A stretch of DNA of 50,266 bases from Dehalococcoidia bacterium (GTDB taxonomy: Bacteria; Chloroflexota; Dehalococcoidia; DSTF01; RBG-16-68-14). The translations under genes and the position numbers were made by a program. Below are positions 1 to 12,051 of the stretch, in pieces. The DNA lies in contig JBAROU010000056.1 of the NCBI GenBank assembly GCA_049642385.1, positions 1 through 50,266 of the forward strand, given 5' to 3'. The first letter of the stretch is position 1. The number at the start of each line of letters is the position of its first letter. The notes below the pieces were generated by a model. The model was not told where the DNA came from. It did not search any database and worked only from the letters and a program-made list of their open reading frames with translations.

Positions 1-874
1 CGTCGACGTCAGTCACCATGTCGGCCGCCTTGTGCTGGATCGCCTGGAAGCTACCAATCGGCCGGCCGAACTGGATGCGGTCTTTCGCGTACTGCACGCT
101 GATCTCGAAGTCGCGCTGCGCCAGCCCGACCAGGAACGCGCACTCCAGCACCGTGCCCTTCTGCGCGATGCGCTCCAGCGTCTCCCAGCCCTTGTCCACC
201 GCACCCAGCACGTTCGCCTTCGCGACCTTCACGTTCTCGAACTTCACCTCGCACTGCTTGTCCGAAGCGATCGTCTTGAGCGCCGTGAAGGAGATGCCGG
301 CGCTCTTGCTGTCAACAATGAACAGCGTGACGCCGTCCTCCGCGTTCGCCCCCTTGCTGGTTCGGGCGGCCACGGTCATGTAGTCCGAGACGTTCGCGTC
401 GCGGATAAACAGCTTCGTGCCGTTCAGCACGTAGCTGTCACCGTCCGCCTTCGCCTCCAGCTCGACGCCCTCGGCGTCGAAGCGCGCCGAAGGCTCCGTC
501 ACGGCGAGCGTCCAGATCTGCTCGCCCGAAGCGATGCGCGGCAGGTACTGCGCCTTCTGCTCGTCTGAGCCCGCCTCCAGCAGCGCGATGGCGCCGCCGA
601 CGGCCGTCGAGATAAACGGCCCGGGCACCAGCGCCCGGCCAAACTCCTCGATAAGGATCACCAGGTCCAGGAAGCCCATGCCGGTGCCGCCCTTGTCCTC
701 TGGGATGATCAGCCCTTGCCAGCCCTGCTCCGCCATCTTCTTCCACAGGTCAGGCGAGTACCCCTGCTCGTCCTCCTCCATGTCGCGCACATGCTTCTCC
801 GGGCACTCCTTCTCCAGGAAGTCCCGCGCGAAGTTCTTGAGCATGTCCTGCTCTTCGCTCAGTCCTAGGTCCAT
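1..874 (-). CDS. acyl-CoA dehydrogenase (N-terminal ~290 aa; C-terminus lies beyond the window start)
   Basis: Absent from the ORF track because it is open at the window edge. My reverse translation from ATG 874..872 gives MDLGLSEEQDMLKNFARDFLEKECP...LAVTEPSARFDAEGV...DRIQFGRPIGSFQAIQHKAADM, a typical ACAD layout. GGAG sits 8 nt upstream of the ATG. Confidence 0.9.
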   Translation of the reverse strand, partial: MDLGLSEEQDMLKNFARDFLEKECPEKHVRDMEEDEQGYSPDLWKKMAEQGWQGLIIPEDKGGTGMGFLDLVILIEEFGRALVPGPFISTAVGGAIALLEAGSDEQKAQYLPRIASGEQIWTLAVTEPSARFDAEGVELEAKADGDSYVLNGTKLFIRDANVSDYMTVAARTSKGANAEDGVTLFIVDSKSAGISFTALKTIASDKQCEVKFENVKVAKANVLGAVDKGWETLERIAQKGTVLECAFLVGLAQRDFEISVQYAKDRIQFGRPIGSFQAIQHKAADMVTDVD

Positions 875-933
875 GTTGTGTGCTCCTTTCTATGTTCTGC
901 GTTCGTTGTTGGAAGCTGGATGTGAGAAGCTAG

Positions 934-961
934 AAGCTATACGACGGTCGTTGCGTGTCAA
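934..961 (-). promoter_or_regulatory. candidate sigma70-type promoter for the terminal ACAD gene (TTGACA-N16-TAGCTT)
   Basis: On the minus strand TTGACA is at 961..956 and TAGCTT at 939..934. The site lies in the only sizeable gap (875-1003) of the operon and is flanked by GGAAGCTGGA/TCCAGCTTCC inverted repeats. Confidence 0.3.
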
Positions 962-1003
962 TCGCCGTCCAGCTTCCAGCCTCCAGCGTCCAGCTTGGTG
1001 CAA

Positions 1004-1351
1004 CTATTGGTTCGCTCCCTCGAGCATGTTGATCTTCGCAGCTATGATGAAGTCGTTCTCGGACAGGCCACCGATCGCGTGCGTCACCAGCTCAAACGTC
1101 ACCTTGTTCCACGAGATGCACACGTCCGGGTGGTGTCCCTCCGATTCCGCGACGTCCGCAACCTTGTTCACGAACGTCATCGCCTGTGCGAAGTCCTTGA
1201 ACTTCATCCGACGCGTGATCTTTGATGGTTCTCCCTCGACGAAGCGCCAGCCCGGCACGGCCGGCATGTAGGCCGCAGCCCGCTCCGCCGACATCGGCGC
1301 CATGCCGCCTTCGCAAGGCACGCAACTTTTCGTGAGAAGGTCGCTGGTCAT
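1004..1351 (-). CDS. pterin-4-alpha-carbinolamine dehydratase (PCD/DCoH family)
   Basis: Internal Met of track ORF 1004..1558: MTSDLLTKSCVPCEGG...FVNKVADVAESEGHHPDVCISWNKVTFELVTH, with the EGHHPD core motif. Its ATG overlaps the upstream ACAD stop as ATGA (1348-1351). Confidence 0.85.
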   Translation of the reverse strand: MTSDLLTKSCVPCEGGMAPMSAERAAAYMPAVPGWRFVEGEPSKITRRMKFKDFAQAMTFVNKVADVAESEGHHPDVCISWNKVTFELVTHAIGGLSENDFIIAAKINMLEGANQ

Positions 1352-2514
1352 TGTCGTGGCAATCCGATCCCGAGTTGGGCAATGATATTGCGCTGCACCT
1401 CGCTGGTGCCGCCGGCCAGCGTGGCGCCCACCTGGATCCGGTACATCCGCTCGATACGACCCATCAACGGGGTGTACGGAGAATCGGGCTCGAGCTGCCC
1501 GTAAAGCCCGGCGAGCCGAATCGCTGTGCGTGCGATGCGCTGCCCCAACTCCGAGCAAAACAGCTTGGTGATCGATGCTTCCTGGGTTGGAATCAGTCCC
1601 CGCGCCTGGAGGCTGGCGACTTGATGAGAGAGCAGGATCGCCACCTTCGCCTCGATCGCCCGATCGGTCAGCTCGTAGCGTGCCTGGATATCGTCTCGCC
1701 GATATGGGCGCGTCGCCTCGATCACCTCTCCCAGCAGCTGTTCGAGGCTCACCGCGTTGACGATGCTGGAACGCTCAAAGGCGAGCGTGGTCATCGCCAC
1801 GTACCAGCCACGGTTCAGCTCGCCCAGCAGGTCTTTCTTAGGCACGCGCACGTTGTCGAAGAAGACCTCGTTGAAGCTCGGCGTCTCAGCCATGTTCGTT
1901 AGGGGCTGCACGCTCACGCCGGGCGCGTGCATGTCCAGCAAGAAGCAGCTGACCCCCTTGTGTTTGGGCGCTTCGTGATCGGTTCGGGCCAGGAGCATCA
2001 TCCGGTCGGCGCGGTGGGCGCCGGACGTCCAGATCTTCTGGCCATTGATCACAAACTCGTCCCCGTCCTCGACCGCTGTCGTTTGTAGGGACGCAAGGTC
2101 AGATCCCGAGTTTGGTTCGCTGAAGCCCTGGCACCAGTACATCTCGCCTGAGAGGATGCCGGAGAGGTGCTTCTGTTTCTGTTCGTCGTTCCCGTGCACG
2201 ATGATCGTCGGCCCGATCAGGCCCACCGCGAGGAAGTTCGGGCGCGGCGCTCGGGCGCGCGCCAGCTCCTCGTTGTATACGAACTGTTGCATCACGGCAA
2301 GGCCTGCGCCGCCGTACTCCTTGGGCCACGCCGGCGCTACCCAACCGCGCGTCGCCAGCTTCTTCAGCCACGCCATGTCGCGCGGGTCCTCCCCCGTGCC
2401 AACGCCGAGGACGGCCTCATCCGGCTGGCGCAGGTCGTCAGTGAGCTCCTGCTCCACGAACTGGCGTACCTCCTTGCGGAACGCCGCGTCTTCAGGTGAA
2501 TCTCGAAAGTCCAT
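1348..2514 (-). CDS. acyl-CoA dehydrogenase family protein (paralog 1 of 5)
   Basis: Track ORF 1348..2544, trimmed to MDFRDSPEDAAFRKEV (ATG 2514) preceded by GAGGGGG. Motifs WVAPAWPKEYGGAGL, CQGFSEPNSGSDLASL, TTLAFERSS and a GGTSEVQRNIIAQ tail. Confidence 0.92.
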   Translation of the reverse strand: MDFRDSPEDAAFRKEVRQFVEQELTDDLRQPDEAVLGVGTGEDPRDMAWLKKLATRGWVAPAWPKEYGGAGLAVMQQFVYNEELARARAPRPNFLAVGLIGPTIIVHGNDEQKQKHLSGILSGEMYWCQGFSEPNSGSDLASLQTTAVEDGDEFVINGQKIWTSGAHRADRMMLLARTDHEAPKHKGVSCFLLDMHAPGVSVQPLTNMAETPSFNEVFFDNVRVPKKDLLGELNRGWYVAMTTLAFERSSIVNAVSLEQLLGEVIEATRPYRRDDIQARYELTDRAIEAKVAILLSHQVASLQARGLIPTQEASITKLFCSELGQRIARTAIRLAGLYGQLEPDSPYTPLMGRIERMYRIQVGATLAGGTSEVQRNIIAQLGIGLPRQ

Positions 2515-2518
2515 GCGG

Positions 2519-3712
2519 TTACCCCCTCGGTAACCCCAGCCCACGCTGGGCGATGATGTTGCGCTGAATCTCGCTTGTCCCTGCCGCTATTGTCGAGCCG
2601 ACCGAGCCGACGTACGAGCGCTCGAACTTGCCTTGTAGAGGCGCGTAGGGCGAGCCGGCTTCGAGCTGGCCGTAGAGACCCATGATGTGCAACCCAGCCC
2701 CGGCCATCCGCTGGTAAAACTCCGAGTTGAACACCTTGATAATCGACGCCTCGTAGTTGGGCACCATGCCCCGCTCTTGCATCGTCACGACGCGGTAAGA
2801 CAGGAACCGGGCGATGCTCAGCTCGATCCACAGCTCAGCGAGCTTGTGGCGCACCAGCGGCTGCTCGAATAGCGTCTTCCCGTTCGGCGGAGCGTGCCCG
2901 CCGACGCGCGTCTCTTTCGCGAACGATGTCAACGTCGAGAGCACGCGCTGGTAGCTGGCTGAAGTAGCGACGTTCGAGCGCTCGAAGTCGAGCGTCGTCG
3001 TTGCCATGTACCAGCCGCGGTTCTCCTCGCCCAGCAGGCCCGAGCGCGGCACGCGCACGTTCTCGAAGAACACCTCGTTGAACCCGCGCTGGTTCGCCAT
3101 GTTGACCAGCGGCCGTACTGTGATGCCGGGCGACTTCATGTCGACGAGGAAGTAGCTGATGCCGCGGTGCTTGGGCGCTTCCGGGTCGGTGCGCGCCAGG
3201 ACGAAGATCCAGTCGGCGTAATGGGCCTGGCTGGTCCAGATCTTCTGCCCGTTGATCACGAAGTCGTCGCCGTCCTGGACGGCCCTCATCTGGAGCGACG
3301 CGAGGTCAGAACCGGACTCAGGCTCGCTGTAGCCCTGGCACCAGATCACCTCGCCGGAAGTGATGCCGCTCAAGTGCTGCGCTTTCTGCTCCTCCGTGCC
3401 GTAGATGATGACCGTCGGGCCCAGGTAGCCGACGGCGGCGGCGTTGATCAGCGGCGAGCCAGCGTACGCCATCTCTTCGTTAAAGACGACCTGCTCCCAG
3501 AGGCTCAGACCGGCGCCGCCGTACTCCTGCGGCCAGGCGGGCGCGATCCAATGTTTCGGCGCGAGCTTTCTCAGGAACTCGCGCCCGAACTCGAACGCCT
3601 CCTCGTCGAAGGGGTTATCCGTGCCTTCCCAATCGGCGGGCAGGCTCGCGCCCAGGAACGAGCGCACTTCACCCCTAAAACTCTCCTGCTTAGCAGTGAA
3701 CCGGAACTCCAT
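2519..3712 (-). CDS. acyl-CoA dehydrogenase family protein (paralog 2 of 5)
   Basis: Track ORF 2519..3727, trimmed to MEFRFTAKQESF. Its ATG shares one nt with the upstream methyltransferase stop (TGATG at 3710-3714). Same motif set (WIAPAWPQEYGGAGL, CQGYSEPESGSDLASL, TTLDFERSN, GGTSEIQRNIIAQRGLGLPRG). Confidence 0.92.
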   Translation of the reverse strand: MEFRFTAKQESFRGEVRSFLGASLPADWEGTDNPFDEEAFEFGREFLRKLAPKHWIAPAWPQEYGGAGLSLWEQVVFNEEMAYAGSPLINAAAVGYLGPTVIIYGTEEQKAQHLSGITSGEVIWCQGYSEPESGSDLASLQMRAVQDGDDFVINGQKIWTSQAHYADWIFVLARTDPEAPKHRGISYFLVDMKSPGITVRPLVNMANQRGFNEVFFENVRVPRSGLLGEENRGWYMATTTLDFERSNVATSASYQRVLSTLTSFAKETRVGGHAPPNGKTLFEQPLVRHKLAELWIELSIARFLSYRVVTMQERGMVPNYEASIIKVFNSEFYQRMAGAGLHIMGLYGQLEAGSPYAPLQGKFERSYVGSVGSTIAAGTSEIQRNIIAQRGLGLPRG

Positions 3713-4575
3713 CAGGGCGTCTCCCACGTGATGAGCAAGTCGCGCGCTTCCAGCGCGCTGCGGCGCCAGAAACCCTTGTCTGTCTTCGCGAAGAGGTCGT
3801 CAAAGTGCTCGTCGATCAGGTCTCGCGCGCGTTCAGTGTCGTCAGCGCTCAGCCACCCCAGCTTGAGGCCGGCTTCCACCTCGTAGCGGATGGCGTCGTC
3901 GCGGGTCTGGCCGATGCCCAGCGTGGCAGGAGCGGCAGCCGGACCGACATCGATCACGTCCGCCGCGATGCTTATCTCGTCGAGGACGCCGAGCAGCTCC
4001 TTGTGGCCGGGCACCGGCGCTAGCTCCTCGCCGTGCACGAGACGGAACAATGGCGCGACCTGGTTCGGCGGTGGCACGCTGCGCATCCCGACGACGACGC
4101 GCCGTCGCGTCGCGCTCTGGAGCTTCTCGACGAACGGCGCGATCTTGCGGACGAAGTACGTCACGTGCGTGACCAGCGCCACGTCGCCTGTGATGTCACC
4201 CGCATCCAACCAGTCGGCCTGGATGAAACGCGCATTCTGGATGCCAGCGTCCCCAGCTGTTGTCCGAAACACTTCGCCCATGGCTGGCGACGGGTCAACG
4301 ATGACCACCTCGCGGCAGCGGAGCGCCAGCGGCAGCGAGAGGCGCCCTGCGCCTCCACCGACGTCTATCAACGTGTCGTCCGGGCGCACGTACGCTGCGA
4401 TCTTCGTCAATAACTCGTCGAGCGGCCGCCGGGGGTCCATCTGGAAGCTCTTCGCGAGCCCGCCCCACGCGTCGCCGTCCGGGCGCCCGAACTGGGCGCG
4501 CTGCGCCTCATACGCCGCTGCCAGGGCGTCGTGGCGCGCCGACGCGGTGTTCGCTCCAGCCTCTACCTGTTGCAA
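3712..4575 (-). CDS. class I SAM-dependent methyltransferase
   Basis: Motif I LIDVGGGAGRLSLPLA followed by VVIVDPS and ADWL acidic loops. The track start at 4575 is a TTG. An alternative ATG (MDPRRPLDELL) at 4440 would remove 45 aa. Confidence 0.8.
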   Translation of the reverse strand: MQQVEAGANTASARHDALAAAYEAQRAQFGRPDGDAWGGLAKSFQMDPRRPLDELLTKIAAYVRPDDTLIDVGGGAGRLSLPLALRCREVVIVDPSPAMGEVFRTTAGDAGIQNARFIQADWLDAGDITGDVALVTHVTYFVRKIAPFVEKLQSATRRRVVVGMRSVPPPNQVAPLFRLVHGEELAPVPGHKELLGVLDEISIAADVIDVGPAAAPATLGIGQTRDDAIRYEVEAGLKLGWLSADDTERARDLIDEHFDDLFAKTDKGFWRRSALEARDLLITWETP

Positions 4576-4617
4576 CTCTGACCGTCGCTCCTCGTTAGGC
4601 CGCCCGCTAGTCAGCGA

Positions 4618-5805
<1,188 letters not shown>

Positions 5806-5847
5806 AGCTACCTCCTGTATGTCTCGATCGTCTCGTGTTGGCTCGCC

Positions 5848-7035
5848 CTAGTCGCGCGGCAGCCCTAGGCCTCGCTGCGCGATGATGTTCCGTTGCACCT
5901 CGCTCGTGCCGCCAGCGATGGTCGATGCCAGCGTCTGGATGTACATGGCGCCATACCGCCCGTTGCGGGGCGCCCACTCGCTGCCCGAAAGGAGCTGCCC
6001 GTAGAGCCCCGTCACGTTCAGCGACGTGCGCGCGATGCGCTGGGTCAGCTCCGAGGCGAACAGCTTCGTCATCGACGCCTCGTAGTTGGGCACCATGCCC
6101 TTCGCCTGCATCGTGATCACGCGATACGAAAGCATCTTCGCCACATGCGTCTCCAGCAGCCGCTCCGCCAGCTCGTGCCGGATCGTCGGTGAGCGGCCGA
6201 GGATCGACCGGTTATCGGCCGCGTGCTCCTTCGCGAAGTCGATCAGGCTCTCGACCTGCAGGCGCATCCCGACGGCCGAGCCGATGCTCGAGCGCTCGAA
6301 GTCGAGCGTCGTCGTGCCGATGTACCAGCCGCGGTTCTCCTCCCCGACGAGGTTCTTAGCCGGAACGCGCACGTTGTCAAAGAACACTTCGTTGAAGCCG
6401 GCCTGGCCGCCCATGTTCACCAGCGGTCGCACCTCCACGCCCGGCGCCTTCATGTCGAGCAGGAAGTAGCTGATCCCCTTGTGCTTCGGGGCGTCCGGGT
6501 CCGTGCGCGCCAGCATGAACATCCAGTGCGCGAACTGCGCGCCTGACGTCCAGATCTTCTGGCCGTTGATCACGAAGTCGTCGCCGTCGCGCACCGCACG
6601 TGTTTGGAGCGACGCCAGGTCGGAGCCCGACTCTGGCTCGCTGAAGCCTTGGCACCACTGCACCTCGCCCGAGAGGATACGGCCCAGGTGCTCCTTCTTT
6701 TGGTCCTCCGAGCCGTGGATGATCAGCGTCGGCCCGATCATGGACGTGCCGAACCCGCCGACTTGCGGCGCGCGCGACTCGGCGAACTCTTCGTTCATGA
6801 TGAACTGCTGCATCGTGGTGAGGCCGGCGCCGCCGTACTCGACCGGCCAGGCGGGTGCGATCCAGCCCTTGTTGGCGAGCCGCGTCCGCCACTCCTTCAT
6901 CTCGTCGAAGCGCCCGCGCATACCGCCGGGGCCGGCCATCTCGATGCCGCGAAAACGGTCCGGCAACTCTTTCTCAATGAACGCTTTGATTTCCTTGCGA
7001 AATGCGGATTCTTCTGGCGTATCGTGGAAGTCCAT
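5848..7035 (-). CDS. acyl-CoA dehydrogenase family protein (paralog 4 of 5)
   Basis: Track ORF 5848..7407 trimmed by 124 codons to MDFHDTPEESAFRKEI (ATG 7035, GGAGG upstream). The discarded N-terminal part overlaps the next ACAD out of frame. Confidence 0.92.
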   Translation of the reverse strand: MDFHDTPEESAFRKEIKAFIEKELPDRFRGIEMAGPGGMRGRFDEMKEWRTRLANKGWIAPAWPVEYGGAGLTTMQQFIMNEEFAESRAPQVGGFGTSMIGPTLIIHGSEDQKKEHLGRILSGEVQWCQGFSEPESGSDLASLQTRAVRDGDDFVINGQKIWTSGAQFAHWMFMLARTDPDAPKHKGISYFLLDMKAPGVEVRPLVNMGGQAGFNEVFFDNVRVPAKNLVGEENRGWYIGTTTLDFERSSIGSAVGMRLQVESLIDFAKEHAADNRSILGRSPTIRHELAERLLETHVAKMLSYRVITMQAKGMVPNYEASMTKLFASELTQRIARTSLNVTGLYGQLLSGSEWAPRNGRYGAMYIQTLASTIAGGTSEVQRNIIAQRGLGLPRD

Positions 7036-7046
7036 GGCGCCCTCCT

Positions 7047-8261
7047 CTAGTCCCTGGGTAGACCCAACCCACGCTGTGCGACGATGTTCCGTTGTATCTC
7101 GCTCGTGCCGCCGCCGACGGTGCTCGTCGTGGCGTACAGATAGTAGGGTGGCATGCGCCCGTTCATCGCGGCGTGCGGACTGTCGCGCATCACTTGGCCG
7201 TACAGCCCGAGCAGTTTCAGCCCGGTCGCCGCGATGCGTTGGTCCAGCTCCGAAGCGTACAGCTTCGCCACGGACGACTCCTTGTTCGGCACCAGGCCGC
7301 GCGCCTGCATGCCGATCACCTGGTAGCTGAGCATGCGCTCCACCTGCGCCTCGATCGCGCGGTCCGCCAGCTCGTAACGGATCAGCGGGTCGCGTGCGAT
7401 CGAACACGTCGGTTCGTCGCGGTGCTCGCGCGCGTAGTCGACGAAGTCCTGGATCGTCGTGCCGTGGCTGATGCTCGTCGCGATGCCTGAGCGTTCGAAG
7501 TCCAGCGTCGTCGTGCCGATGTACCAGCCGCGGTTCTCCTCGCCGATCAGGTTCTCTTTCGGCACGCGCACGTTGTCGAAGAACACCTCGTTGAAGTCGT
7601 GACTGCCTGCCATGTTCACCAGCGGCCGCACAGTGATCCCCGGCGACTTCATGTCGAGCAGGAAGTAGCTGATCCCCTTGTGCTTAGGCGCTTCCGGGTC
7701 GGTGCGTGCGAGCAAGATCATCCACTGAGCGCCGTGCGCGCCCGATGTCCAGGTTTTCTGTCCGTTCACCACGTAGTCGTCGCCGTCGCGCACCGCGCGT
7801 GTCTGGATCCCGGCCAGGTCGGAGCCTGCGCTCGGTTCGGAGAAGCCCTGGCACCAGAACACTTCGTTCTTCAGGATCGGCGGTAGGTGCTTCTCCTTCT
7901 GCTCGTCGGTGCCGTAGATGATCAGCGTCGGCCCCACCCAACCCAACGCGATCTGGTTCGGGCTGCGCGGCGCGCGCTCGGTCGCCATCTCCTCGTTGAA
8001 GATGAACTGCTCAATGACAGAAAGGCCGGCGCCGCCGTACTCCTTCGGCCACGCAGGGGCAATCAAGCCCTTCTCCGACAGCTTCTTTAGCCAGCCGCCC
8101 AGCGCTGCGAGGTAGCCCTTCTGTGCGAAGCGCCCGCTGCCGCCCCCGAACAGCGCGCCGCCTTCGCGACGTCGCGCCAGCTCCGGCGGAAGCTCGGTCT
8201 TGATGAAGTTGCGCACCTCCTGCCGGAATGAGGCTTCGGTTGGCGTGTCACGAAAGTCCAC
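7047..8261 (-). CDS. acyl-CoA dehydrogenase family protein (paralog 5 of 5)
   Basis: GTG start at 8261 preceded by AAGGAG. MDFRDTPTEASFRQEV..., LIAPAWPKEYGGAGL, CQGFSEPSAGSDLAGI, TTLDFERSG, GGTSEIQRNIVAQRGLGLPRD. Confidence 0.92.
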   Translation of the reverse strand: MDFRDTPTEASFRQEVRNFIKTELPPELARRREGGALFGGGSGRFAQKGYLAALGGWLKKLSEKGLIAPAWPKEYGGAGLSVIEQFIFNEEMATERAPRSPNQIALGWVGPTLIIYGTDEQKEKHLPPILKNEVFWCQGFSEPSAGSDLAGIQTRAVRDGDDYVVNGQKTWTSGAHGAQWMILLARTDPEAPKHKGISYFLLDMKSPGITVRPLVNMAGSHDFNEVFFDNVRVPKENLIGEENRGWYIGTTTLDFERSGIATSISHGTTIQDFVDYAREHRDEPTCSIARDPLIRYELADRAIEAQVERMLSYQVIGMQARGLVPNKESSVAKLYASELDQRIAATGLKLLGLYGQVMRDSPHAAMNGRMPPYYLYATTSTVGGGTSEIQRNIVAQRGLGLPRD

Positions 8262-8273
8262 AATGTCTCCTTG

Positions 8274-8951
8274 CTAGTCCAGCGGCCAGCCGTCCGGCGC
8301 GACGAGCTCCGATACCGCTCGCGCTGCCGGGCCGACGCGCCCCTCGCGCTTCGATACGCGCAGCATCTCTTGGTACAGGCTGCCCCACCGCTCGACTTTC
8401 GCGCGGTCCAGCTCTGCGCTGAAGCCGAGCATGTGCATCAGGTCCAGCGTGAGCCCGATGCTCAGGAACTGCCACGCGACCAGCCGCGAGTCGATATCGC
8501 GGCGCACGATACCACGCCGCTTGCCTTCATCGACGGTCTCGGCAACAAAGTCGACGAAGTTCGCGAAGTTCTCGTGGAGCGCAGCTTTGATCTCCGGGTC
8601 GTCCGCCTCGGACACGGCCTGAAACTGCAGCTTCATGTTGCCGGAGTGGCTCTGCAGGTGGTCGTAGTAGTGGACGCCGATCGACCAGATCGTCTCCAGT
8701 GGGTCGTCCACGTCGTATGAGATGTTCTGCCAGATCTCGAGTAGCTTCGGTGCGGTCGAGCGCAAGGTGGCGAGGAAGAGGGCCTTCTTGCTGGGGAAGT
8801 GGCGGTACAGCGCCGGCTCAGACACGCCCACAGCCTTCGCAATATCAGCGGTGCCTACCTTGGCATAGCTCTGGGTCGCGAAAACCTCACGCGCAGATTC
8901 GATGATCTGGCGTTTTCGGTCTTGTGCGGGCAGTCTGCGAGCTCGTGCCAT
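8274..8951 (-). CDS. TetR/AcrR family transcriptional regulator (first gene of the ACAD operon)
   Basis: N-terminal HTH: RKRQIIESAREVFATQSYAKVGTADIAKAVGVSEPALYRHFPSKKALF. Its stop lies 12 nt upstream of the first ACAD start. Confidence 0.9.
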   Translation of the reverse strand: MARARRLPAQDRKRQIIESAREVFATQSYAKVGTADIAKAVGVSEPALYRHFPSKKALFLATLRSTAPKLLEIWQNISYDVDDPLETIWSIGVHYYDHLQSHSGNMKLQFQAVSEADDPEIKAALHENFANFVDFVAETVDEGKRRGIVRRDIDSRLVAWQFLSIGLTLDLMHMLGFSAELDRAKVERWGSLYQEMLRVSKREGRVGPAARAVSELVAPDGWPLD

Positions 8952-8955
8952 AAGT

Positions 8956-8971
8956 TAGTGACCACTCACTA
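8956..8971. promoter_or_regulatory. inverted repeat TAGTGA-N4-TCACTA, candidate TetR operator
   Basis: Perfect 6+6 palindrome starting 5 nt upstream of the tetR ATG. There is no SD between it and the start codon. Confidence 0.3.
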
Positions 8972-9183
8972 TCGCCCAGAGGCGACCATACCCTACCACT
9001 GAGCAGGAGCGTTGTCAAGAGGGTCAGCAAATAGATCGCTCGGGTAGCAATCTCGCAACGACTTCCCAGCGGCGCTGCGCTATGGTGTCCAAAGGAGGAG
9101 TTAGATGGCGCCTGACACCCCAGCGATACGACGAACGAAACGGACTTGGTCTACGAGAACGGCGGCGACCAGATGCTGCTCGC

Positions 9184-9774
9184 TTACCTAGGACGGGCAG
9201 GGCTATCGCTGCGATGATACCGCCCCTCGGCGGGCCACAGCTTCTTATGGAGGTGGATGTCCTCCGGCTCCAGCGCGAAGAGTTCGGGGAACGGCTCGGC
9301 CATCGGCTGGTAGCCGCGGCCCATGTAGAAACGCACCGTGTTCTGTGACGGCGTAGCGGAGACGACGATCTCGGTGTCGCCGCCTTCTCTGGCGATGTGG
9401 TCTAGGTCCTCGGACAGCCGCCTGCCGATGCCGCTGGCCCGATTTCCGTTGCTCACGTGCAGGTAGGCGAGCTGCGCGACGCCGGGCCGCAGGTGCTGGA
9501 CCAGAACGCCGATGCCAGCCAGGCGATCGCCATCGAAAGCGCCGAGGGCAACAGCGCCTGACCCGAGCAACTCCTCGACGTGCGTTTGCTGGGCCGCGTG
9601 AGAGTGCTCGCCGTCGCCTTCCGTGAGCCAGTTGGGGGAGTCGAAGTCGCCGCGGCGTTCCTCTAGCTGCGTTCCGTGCTGGATATAGAGGACGCCGATG
9701 CGCTCGCTGCGATCTATGTCGCGGATGCGCGGGAGGTCAGCGGGAACAAAGGGGCGATAGGTAATGGGTGCCAA
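9184..9774 (-). CDS. GNAT family N-acetyltransferase
   Basis: Acetyl-CoA-binding-type segment LAYLHVSNGNRASGIGRRLSEDLDHIAREGG and a ...FYMGRGYQP tail. The track start is a TTG without an SD, so the 5' end is uncertain. Confidence 0.8.
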   Translation of the reverse strand: MAPITYRPFVPADLPRIRDIDRSERIGVLYIQHGTQLEERRGDFDSPNWLTEGDGEHSHAAQQTHVEELLGSGAVALGAFDGDRLAGIGVLVQHLRPGVAQLAYLHVSNGNRASGIGRRLSEDLDHIAREGGDTEIVVSATPSQNTVRFYMGRGYQPMAEPFPELFALEPEDIHLHKKLWPAEGRYHRSDSPARPR

Positions 9775-10912: not shown

Positions 10913-11557
10913 TTACGCCGCGGTTTCGGCCGTCTGGTGCAGGCGTTCCCTCGCCGTGGTGATCAGCTCTTCATAGTCCGAGCCGTCGCCCGGGAAACTG
11001 CTCAGGCCCACATCAACGCCATCGATCTCCGCCTGGAGCCTGCCAACGACCGCCAGCGAGACCGCTGGTTCGCTCTGCGGCATGAGCACGACGTAACCGC
11101 CATTTCCGACGTACGCGGCCAGGTCAGCCTTGCGCAGCTGCCGGCGCAGCCAGTTCGCGACGAAATCCTGCACCACCCAGGGTTCTTCCGTATCCGGCGC
11201 CGGCTCGATCACCGCGACGGTCAGCCCGTGATTGTAGCGACGCGCCCGATAGCACTCTTCATCGCAGCGCAGCGTGATATACCAGTGAGCAAAGAGCCCG
11301 GTCTCGCGCTCGTAGATGACCAGCTTGCGACCGCTCGCCGCTTGCGCGGATGCCTTTTCGATCAGGACCTGGTTGGTCTTATTGCGCTCGCGCCCCTGAA
11401 ACATCGCCGCACCCAGCTCCAGCCCAAGGACAGCGGCCAGGCCACCCACCACGATCGCGGGCACGACCCAGCCGACCGCGAGGAACACGAGCGCTGCGAT
11501 AGTCGCGCTGACGATGACCGCCACCACGGCCTTCCGGAGACTGAGGTCCTGGCTCAC
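10913..11557 (-). CDS. membrane-anchored degenerate GGDEF-like domain protein
   Basis: Two N-terminal TM helices, then TGLFAHWYITLRCDEECYRARRYNHGLTVAVIE...ADLAAYVGNGGYVVLMPQSEP. This matches the GGDEF-domain layout (TGL.NRR...ARRY..P..L...D...R.GGDEF..LLP) with NGGYV in place of GGDEF. The GTG start overlaps the upstream stop (GTGA). Confidence 0.6.
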   Translation of the reverse strand: MSQDLSLRKAVVAVIVSATIAALVFLAVGWVVPAIVVGGLAAVLGLELGAAMFQGRERNKTNQVLIEKASAQAASGRKLVIYERETGLFAHWYITLRCDEECYRARRYNHGLTVAVIEPAPDTEEPWVVQDFVANWLRRQLRKADLAAYVGNGGYVVLMPQSEPAVSLAVVGRLQAEIDGVDVGLSSFPGDGSDYEELITTARERLHQTAETAA

Positions 11558-12051
11558 GCCGCGTCCTCAAGCGCCAGGTGCTCCCTCACCGCACGGGCGA
11601 ACTGCTCCGCCGTCTCGAACTGATCAGAGCTTTGCAGCGCAGCGACACGCCACTTCTGGCCGCCGAGCGCCCGGCTCCGTAGCCACATCTCGTTTCGCCA
11701 GCGGGAGACCGCGGCTTCCGCGTCTGCCTGCGATGTCTCCGGCATGATCGTGAGGAAGCTGTCTTTGCTGTACCAGCCCAGCAGGTCGATCGAGCGGGCC
11801 ATAGCCTTCGCGGTCTCGACGGCGGCCTGGAGCGCCTGGTCGTTCGCCGGCTGAACGGGCAAGGGCGTTCCCGCGGCGACCATGATGATCGCCACCGGTC
11901 GGTTGTATCGGCGGGCCCGCTCCATCTCTTCTTCCAGGCGATAGAGAATGTACCAGCGAGCGTACAGCGGCCCTTCCTTGAGGATGGCCTGAGCTGTAGG
12001 AGCCCCTGGTGCCTCTGGGTCCGTCTTTTGGGACTTCTTGAAGAGTGGCAT
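11554..12051 (-). CDS. soluble degenerate GGDEF-like domain protein
   Basis: PLYARWYILYRLEEEMERARRYNRPVAIIMV...SIDLLGWYSKDSFLTIMPETSQADAEAA. SKDSF replaces GGDEF and the upstream metal-binding D-x-D/H region is absent. Paralogous to the downstream gene. Confidence 0.6.
   Translation of the reverse strand: MPLFKKSQKTDPEAPGAPTAQAILKEGPLYARWYILYRLEEEMERARRYNRPVAIIMVAAGTPLPVQPANDQALQAAVETAKAMARSIDLLGWYSKDSFLTIMPETSQADAEAAVSRWRNEMWLRSRALGGQKWRVAALQSSDQFETAEQFARAVREHLALEDAA

Follow-up and report, generated by a model that had tools for sequence, protein, structure and literature searches.

The left end of a contig from a Dehalococcoidia bacterium (Chloroflexota; contig JBAROU010000056.1 of assembly GCA_049642385.1, 50,266 nt, referred to here as the window) carries a putative TetR-autoregulated operon that probably encodes acyl-CoA dehydrogenases (ACADs) of the alpha2beta2 type, in which one shared beta subunit would pair with each of several alpha subunits and give several isoenzymes. 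We put the probability of this reading at about 0.6. The window corresponds to contig C160 in full, one of the 264 contigs of a 2.59-Mb metagenome-assembled genome (MAG). On its minus strand, a TetR-family regulator is followed by five paralogous ACAD genes, named A5 to A1 in gene order, and by a sixth, divergent ACAD gene. These seven genes had been read from the sequence alone in an earlier annotation (the original prediction), and open reading frames (ORFs) were found where it had placed them; it had left out two further genes of the cluster, a methyltransferase-like gene and a pterin-4a-carbinolamine dehydratase-like gene. Judged by their motifs, the six ACAD genes have degenerated in an exactly complementary manner, as five alphas and one beta.

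In the proposed arrangement, each alpha subunit would supply the substrate pocket, a helix-G Glu as catalytic base and the isoalloxazine side of the flavin adenine dinucleotide (FAD) site. The beta subunit, with no catalytic base and with its own flavin pocket blocked, would use two motifs to bind the ADP-ribose part of its partner's FAD. The single beta would dimerise with each of the five alphas and complete their FAD sites, yielding up to five alpha2beta2 isoenzymes with differing acyl-CoA specificities. Electrons would pass to the electron transfer flavoprotein, for which the genome has one gene pair, on contig C239. The regulator would bind a conserved palindrome that lies between the -10 box and the ATG of its own gene, to be released presumably by an acyl-CoA-type ligand. 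This division of labour is described for alpha2beta2 ACADs: the alpha subunit accommodates the isoalloxazine and the substrate and carries the Glu, and the beta subunit binds the ADP-ribose of FAD (PMC11153573), and the heterotetramer is essential for activity (PMC8399759).

The five paralogs, A5 (7047-8261, 404 aa, GTG start), A4 (5848-7035, 395 aa), A3 (4618-5805, 395 aa), A2 (2519-3712, 397 aa) and A1 (1348-2514, 388 aa), all on the minus strand, each contain three Pfam ACAD domains and are alpha-type subunits by sequence criteria. Their pairwise identity is 54-62%, and 132 columns are invariant across all five. The shared motifs listed in the original prediction are present overall, with deviations in A2 (a MEFRF start), in A5 (LIAPAWP and SAGSDLA) and in the segment around the MCAD-type base position (AAGTSE in A2, EGGTSE in A3). 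In the joint alignment, all five carry the isoalloxazine-side flavin motif (F/Y)SEPx(S/A)GSDLA together with IWTS, and the Glu within L(D/A)FER on helix G aligns in all five with the Glu of LNHER in ChsE4, residue 247 by counting in the alignment, which we take to be the catalytic base of that enzyme. Gly or Ala occupies the position of MCAD Glu376. The previous placement of the TTLDFER Glu at the IVD/LCAD-type base position is therefore borne out, and because all five keep the helix-G Glu and the SEPxxGSD flavin motif, they look catalytically competent, as had been proposed.

What the five lack is equally consistent among them. In ordinary ACADs, an R-x-QFG and a Q-x-HGG-x-G motif extend over the dimer interface and hold the ADP portion of the FAD in the adjacent subunit. 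Both of these trans motifs are absent in A1-A5, as they are in ChsE4 and Tcur3483: R-x-QFG-x-P-x-x-x-FQ is missing and Q-x-HGG-x-G is replaced by GLYGQL, so that no chain combines the helix-G Glu with intact trans motifs as IVD and LCAD do. The five paralogs, ChsE4 and Tcur3483 also have in common an insertion of 8 residues and the sequence GLGLPR as a C-terminal tail. With A4 as query, the closest solved structures are Tcur3483 (6wy9_A/6wy8_B, 234/232 bits, 3e-68) and ChsE4/FadE26 (4x28_A, 218 bits, 2e-63); the next structure after these alphas scores 142 bits, and the best homomeric ACAD reaches 2e-40. Against the same query, 1egc, presumably the T255E/E376G double mutant of MCAD, scores above 1ege, presumably the wild type (141.6 vs 135.8 bits). 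In a maximum-likelihood tree, ChsE4/Tcur3483 form the sister group of the entire alpha clade. Among NCBIfam models, the PimC large subunit is best for all five (240-290 bits), far under its cut-off of 624 bits. The original prediction had set the array apart from the mycobacterial alpha2beta2 FadE pairs; the comparison now falls the other way, since the closest structures are the alphas of such pairs, the trans motifs are absent likewise and the sixth gene is of the beta type.

That sixth gene (2-874, minus strand) is cut by the contig end after its first 291 residues, and its C-terminal features were read from two full-length orthologs, P0129 in locus L001 and C241b in the same MAG. By motif alignment it is a beta-type, non-catalytic subunit: there is no Glu at either base position, its own FAD pocket is degenerate and the trans motifs are intact. 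Residues 1-291 read TEPSARFDA for TEPxAGSD and IAQKGT at helix G, with no Glu, and retain RIQFGRPIGSFQ; LFIRDA stands where IFITNA would be expected. In the orthologs, AWGD replaces YEGT, with Trp at the MCAD-type base position in the alignment to 5ol2_C, and both trans motifs are present, RIQFGRPIGSFQAIQ and QIHGGIGFT. Tcur3481 and ChsE5, both known betas, display this pattern as well. The best NCBIfam model for the gene is the AcrC acryloyl-CoA reductase (237 bits), with the PimD small subunit a near-tie second (224 bits, cut-off 653); neither score reaches the cut-off of its family. A strong ribosome-binding site, GGAAAGGAG, precedes the beta and is conserved in four loci. Because the protein is base-less and yet keeps its trans motifs, it would have to serve an alpha; because every alpha of the clade is without trans motifs, one shared beta is the most economical arrangement.

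The MAG contains a second version of the beta. Positions 1-890 of the window, at the left end of C160, overlap with C241:14013-14902, at the right end of that contig, over ~890 nt at 86.5% identity. On C241, the complete second beta is followed by a PAS-LuxR gene and then by HIT, M48 and HD genes that continue the synteny. The two versions probably come from two populations within the bin or from a break in the assembly; a true duplication is less likely, because relatives have one beta ortholog each. The PAS-LuxR gene (C241:11003-13546, plus strand) encodes an 847-aa protein which, by eye, has many PAS-like repeats and a LuxR-type C-terminal helix-turn-helix; it has no counterpart between the beta and HIT in the other loci.

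The locus is widely conserved. The order L21-L27-L31-DUF1385-TetR-alphas-(methyltransferase)-(dehydratase)-beta-HIT-M48 recurs on long contigs of other samples, with five or three alphas, and homologs come from soil and aquifer metagenomes. In the maximum-likelihood tree, alphas from corresponding positions of the array cluster together, and every orthogroup has 100% support. A5, A4 and A3 fall with genes 1, 2 and 3, respectively, of loci L001, L002 and L003, and A2 and A1 with genes 4 and 5, respectively, of L001 and L003. The five-gene array is old and no recent local burst, because each paralog has a same-position 1:1 ortholog elsewhere at full support. Orthologous arrays, whose existence in related genomes the original prediction had proposed to test, are syntenic in many Dehalococcoidia, and its description of the array as a dense in-situ expansion proved misleading for the same reason. 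A4 orthologs at 77-82% identity are plentiful, and the highest conservation within the operon is that of the beta (82-89% identity between orthologs, vs 74-84% for the alphas). Dispersed copies in the source genome nest among the array genes, C103a with A5 and C220a with A2.

The beta ortholog occurs in all but one of 20 relatives, and the array comprises one to five alphas: five in G007 (contig C10), G011 (C32) and G020 (C48), four in G006 and G016, three in G008 and G019, two in G014 and G018, and one in G013. Contiguous arrays in these relatives have a single beta at their 3' end, except in G013, where the beta lies upstream of its one alpha. Across species-representative loci with 6 kb of upstream sequence available, 34 of 60 have one to five alphas directly upstream of the beta. 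In L002 the A2 and A1 orthologs have been lost and the beta follows the A3 ortholog; therefore, the beta is not committed to any single alpha. The array can take up insertions and keep its gene order. In L001, a 23S_rRNA_IVP four-helix-bundle gene (L001:9550-9966, also found in L003 and L004) and a 575-aa PEP-utilizer/Rph-like gene (L001:14988-16715) are inserted between alphas.

Alpha genes far outnumber beta genes. For complete genomes, every ACAD-fold gene was classed by six motif windows, and the reading frames of G109 were chosen with BLAST guidance. Such genomes hold up to 30 alpha-clade genes, mostly not beside a beta. In G075 (98% complete, one contig), the 13 genes of the alpha clade are all dispersed, exactly one gene is of the beta type and 8 others are canonical, self-sufficient ACADs. 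G109 has ~25 alphas and 5 betas, four of which adjoin their own divergent alpha, and only the ortholog of the window beta is unpaired. The cultured Tepidiforma flava YIM 72310 has ~13 alphas and 1 beta. The source MAG contains at least 10 alpha-type genes, namely the five of the array, four copies on other contigs (C103a, C72a, C133a and C220a, 48-57% identical to A4) and C79a (41%), together with three kinds of beta-type gene, the window beta, C101b and C79b. C79a and C79b form a classical adjacent pair, and C79b matches Tcur3481 and ChsE5 first.

Across the class, the beta ortholog was detected in 90 of 151 genomes and is single-copy in 83 of these 90 carriers. Alpha and beta were both found in 64 genomes, alpha only in 20, beta only in 26 and neither in 41; these counts depend on the threshold and are confounded by phylogeny, and the association is weak evidence. 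Seven of eight apparent cases of an alpha without a beta do carry a beta, just under the threshold or split at contig ends. In the T. flava record (NZ_CP115149.1, L159-L181), several alpha-type genes are broken into two frames or run on into long extensions that are out of frame, which suggests either indel errors in the record or real pseudogenes.

A number of observations weigh against a shared beta. Many alphas are unlinked to any beta, such as C133a and C220a in the source MAG and all 13 in G075, and G078 (97% complete) has 7 alphas and no detectable beta; the excess of alphas may be read as a sign that they do not need one. The beta itself is nearer to homomeric ACADs (5ol2_C, 4e-59, 204 bits) than to Tcur3481 and ChsE5 (~1e-44, ~155 bits), and the TEP part of the flavin motif is retained; compared with the known betas it is less degenerate, having evolved separately or slowly. 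The dehydratase-like gene and a 129-nt spacer stand between the beta and the last alpha. In addition, the window beta is truncated and a second allele (86.5% nucleotide identity) lies at the end of contig C241, which makes the true copy number in the MAG uncertain. The pairing is proposed from motif complementarity and gene linkage.

In a rival reading, the alphas would be self-sufficient homodimers or homotetramers that bind the ADP of FAD in a non-canonical way, perhaps through the conserved segment GLYGQL...SPxAP, and the beta would partner only one alpha or do something else. An excess of 5-25 alpha genes per beta, mostly unlinked in complete genomes, and the beta-less G078 speak for this, and the invariance of GLYGQ in the five paralogs indicates a segment under constraint that could have its own function. 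We nevertheless consider it unlikely. Every alpha lacks both trans FAD motifs, exactly as do ChsE4 and Tcur3483, and a base-less beta with a degenerate pocket that keeps its trans motifs under strong conservation makes sense only if it serves the FAD of a partner. In G075 and T. flava this partner must be a dispersed alpha, and alpha and beta co-occur over the class. More doubtful still is an exclusive pairing, in which the beta would belong to one dedicated alpha, for example A1 as the nearest, and the other alphas would use betas elsewhere (of the C101b type) or act in successive rounds as in cholesterol side-chain degradation. All characterised systems are indeed 1:1 pairs, at least two further genes of the beta type (C101b and C79b) occur in the source genome and G109 has four classical adjacent pairs. 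However, the alpha next to the beta varies, from the A1 orthogroup here to the A3 orthogroup in L002, and the classical betas already adjoin divergent alphas of their own, both in C79a-C79b and in the pairs of G109. In G075 a single beta-type gene accompanies 13 alphas, and the window is without a hydratase, a thiolase or other genes that would define successive rounds.

A pseudo-enzyme or decaying array, which had been put forward as the outcome if the original prediction failed, is very improbable. The absence of the trans FAD motifs is all that would favour it, against five intact ORFs with the catalytic Glu and the flavin motif kept, 132 invariant columns and same-position orthologs of each paralog at 74-84% identity. 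Two further proposals of the original prediction concerned the function of the array. A local multi-step pathway resembling beta-oxidation is contradicted by the gene content, because no hydratase, hydroxyacyl-CoA dehydrogenase, thiolase or CoA ligase is found among the genes of the 50-kb window; the operon is a set of parallel dehydrogenases rather than a pathway. The idea of combinatorial hetero-oligomers survives in a modified form, as one beta shared by the alphas.

If the shared-beta reading is extended to the class, one highly conserved, non-catalytic and almost always single-copy beta would be the obligatory FAD-completing partner of the whole alpha family, with 5-25 alphas per genome. 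Substrate range would then have been diversified by duplicating the catalytic half only, and the operon in the window would represent five spokes still linked to the hub. We hold this wider proposal tentatively, at somewhat less than even odds. A beta that serves many alphas would represent a novel route to enzyme families, in which a shared scaffold half is combined with exchangeable catalytic halves. It would also explain the very large ACAD repertoires in the small genomes of uncultured Dehalococcoidia from soils, aquifers and hot springs, repertoires that are probably directed at varied bulky or branched acyl-CoAs of recalcitrant organic matter. Annotation would change accordingly, as dozens of genes per genome now labelled 'acyl-CoA dehydrogenase family protein' would be non-functional alone. 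The idea is directly testable in the cultured T. flava with its ~13:1 pattern. Should the alphas turn out to be self-sufficient, they would bind FAD unlike any ACAD structure, which is also of interest.

The sequence offers some indications of substrate. Seven alignment columns are specific to orthogroups, and five of the seven lie at substrate-cavity elements: the Pro-loop of helix E (ChsE4 P91, S97 and V98), residues just before the helix-G base, and beside the MCAD-376 position. These paralog-specific cavity residues fit a divergence in substrate choice. The Pro equivalent to ChsE4 Pro89 is kept in all five. In ChsE4, this residue unwinds helix E and enlarges the pocket, and it is linked to bulky substrates (PMC11153573). 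Its conservation here is a hint that the substrates may be branched or cyclic acyl-CoAs. A3 and its orthologs (L001:11715-12902, L002:11299-12483 and L003:11252-12439) are alone in having a Glu at the MCAD Tyr375-equivalent position (TIEGGTSE), which may give this orthogroup a second acidic residue in the active site besides the helix-G Glu.

The cluster is tightly packed and headed by the regulator. The TetR-family gene (8274-8951, minus strand, 225 aa, PF00440 at 1.1e-17) lies 12 nt upstream of A5, and its orthologs keep the first-gene position in L001-L004. From TetR to the dehydratase-like gene, successive gaps are 12, 11, 42, 42, -1, 4 and -4 nt, followed by 129 nt to the sixth ACAD gene. 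The methyltransferase-like gene (3712-4575, minus strand, 287 aa, Methyltransf_25/11 matches, class I and S-adenosylmethionine-dependent) lies within the array between A3 and A2; it occupies the same position in L001, L003 and L004 and is absent from L002. The dehydratase-like gene (1004-1351, minus strand, 115 aa, Pterin_4a, PF01329 at 6e-32), whose start overlaps the A1 stop by 4 nt, is likewise found between the last alpha and the beta in L001, L003 and L004. A promoter/terminator scan found no terminator-like hairpin on the minus strand of positions 1-9400.

Upstream of the regulator, a -35 box TTGACA (9013-9018, minus strand) was read from the sequence, and CTTGACA is invariant in four orthologous loci; a generic promoter scan called no promoter, this box included. 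A -10-like box, TAGGGT (8990-8995, minus strand), follows after 17 nt and reads TAGGGT in three loci and TACTGT in the fourth. A probable TetR operator, ATAGTGAGTGGTCACTAACT (8953-8972, minus strand), is a TAGTGA-N4-TCACTA inverted repeat that ends 2 nt before the TetR ATG and is conserved in four loci; written as ATAGTGAGT-N3-CACTAACT, it is invariant there apart from its 3-nt centre. The site is unique in the window (0.01 chance matches expected) and in the genome. Because this conserved, unique palindrome lies between the -10 box and the TetR ATG, it supports an autoregulated, TetR-led operon. The protein has distant similarity to FasR and FadR-type TetRs, from which we infer that its ligand may be of the acyl-CoA type. 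A search for more copies of the operator ahead of the dispersed alphas, as expected of a TetR regulon, found none in the genome beyond the operon site and a weak core match on C203 (C203:7764-7779), the only other near-match to the 6-4-6 core, with one mismatch. The spacer between the dehydratase-like gene and the beta (875-1003, minus strand) contains four GCTGGA repeats and a TTGACA; an internal promoter before the beta was considered and rejected, as this TTGACA is not conserved in L001-L003.

The other genes of the window are housekeeping genes, including IF-2, NusA, TruB, PGM, Ino1 and L21. The L21 gene (12742-13413, minus strand) encodes 223 aa with a tail of ~120 residues rich in Ala, Pro and Lys, and the L21 genes of the orthologous loci are also long (175-221 aa). 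Two adjoining small genes (10913-11557 and 11554-12051, minus strand), which overlap by 4 nt, lie between DUF1385 and L21; the first has no Pfam match, and the second has a partial GGDEF match that covers profile positions 55-106 only. The interval that holds them is empty in L001-L004.

To our knowledge, ACADs of two subunits have been described almost exclusively as 1:1 pairs from steroid and bile-acid degradation in Actinomycetota and Proteobacteria, and we know of no case in which one beta serves five or more alphas. A literature search on ACAD paralog expansion in Dehalococcoidia returned nothing specific. By the features of its sequences, the locus belongs with the alpha2beta2 ACADs of the ChsE, IpdE, Scd and PimCD types. 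Alpha and beta are encoded together, on the same strand and in the same TetR-led cluster, and this linkage is kept in L001-L004. The one habitual feature that fails is the 1:1 gene ratio: the window has a ratio of 5:1, relatives have 1-5:1 and G075 reaches 13:1 over its whole genome.

The nearest structural counterparts of the five paralogs are the steroid ACADs ChsE4-ChsE5 of Mycobacterium tuberculosis (FadE26-FadE27, 4X28) and Tcur3483-Tcur3481 of Thermomonospora curvata (6WY8/6WY9). They share the division of labour seen in the sequences, with the flavin motif and the helix-G Glu in the alpha and a base-less beta that carries the trans motifs. The identity to them is only ~40%, the beta described here is far less degenerate than ChsE5 and Tcur3481 and nearer to ordinary ACADs, and the locus has no steroid-catabolic neighbours and comes from Chloroflexota rather than Actinomycetota. 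IVD and LCAD have the catalytic base at the same position, with Gly or Ala at the MCAD Glu376 position; in contrast to A1-A5, they are self-sufficient homotetramers with intact trans motifs, and with A4 as query they score ~119 and ~117 bits vs 218-234 bits for the alpha2beta2 alphas. The pimeloyl-CoA dehydrogenase PimC/PimD of Rhodopseudomonas palustris (TIGR03204/TIGR03203) is also a pair of a large and a small subunit, and PimC is the best curated family for the five, but scores far under the equivalog cut-offs (624 and 653 bits) indicate that they are not Pim orthologs; in the reported arrangement, a single pair of Pim genes lies within a complete operon for beta-oxidation. The nearest precedent is the fadE31-fadE32-fadE33 operon of M. 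tuberculosis, which is reported to encode more than one heteromeric complex from three ACAD genes. There too, subunit types would be unequal in number within an ACAD operon and a subunit would have more than one partner, with three genes there and six ACAD genes here.

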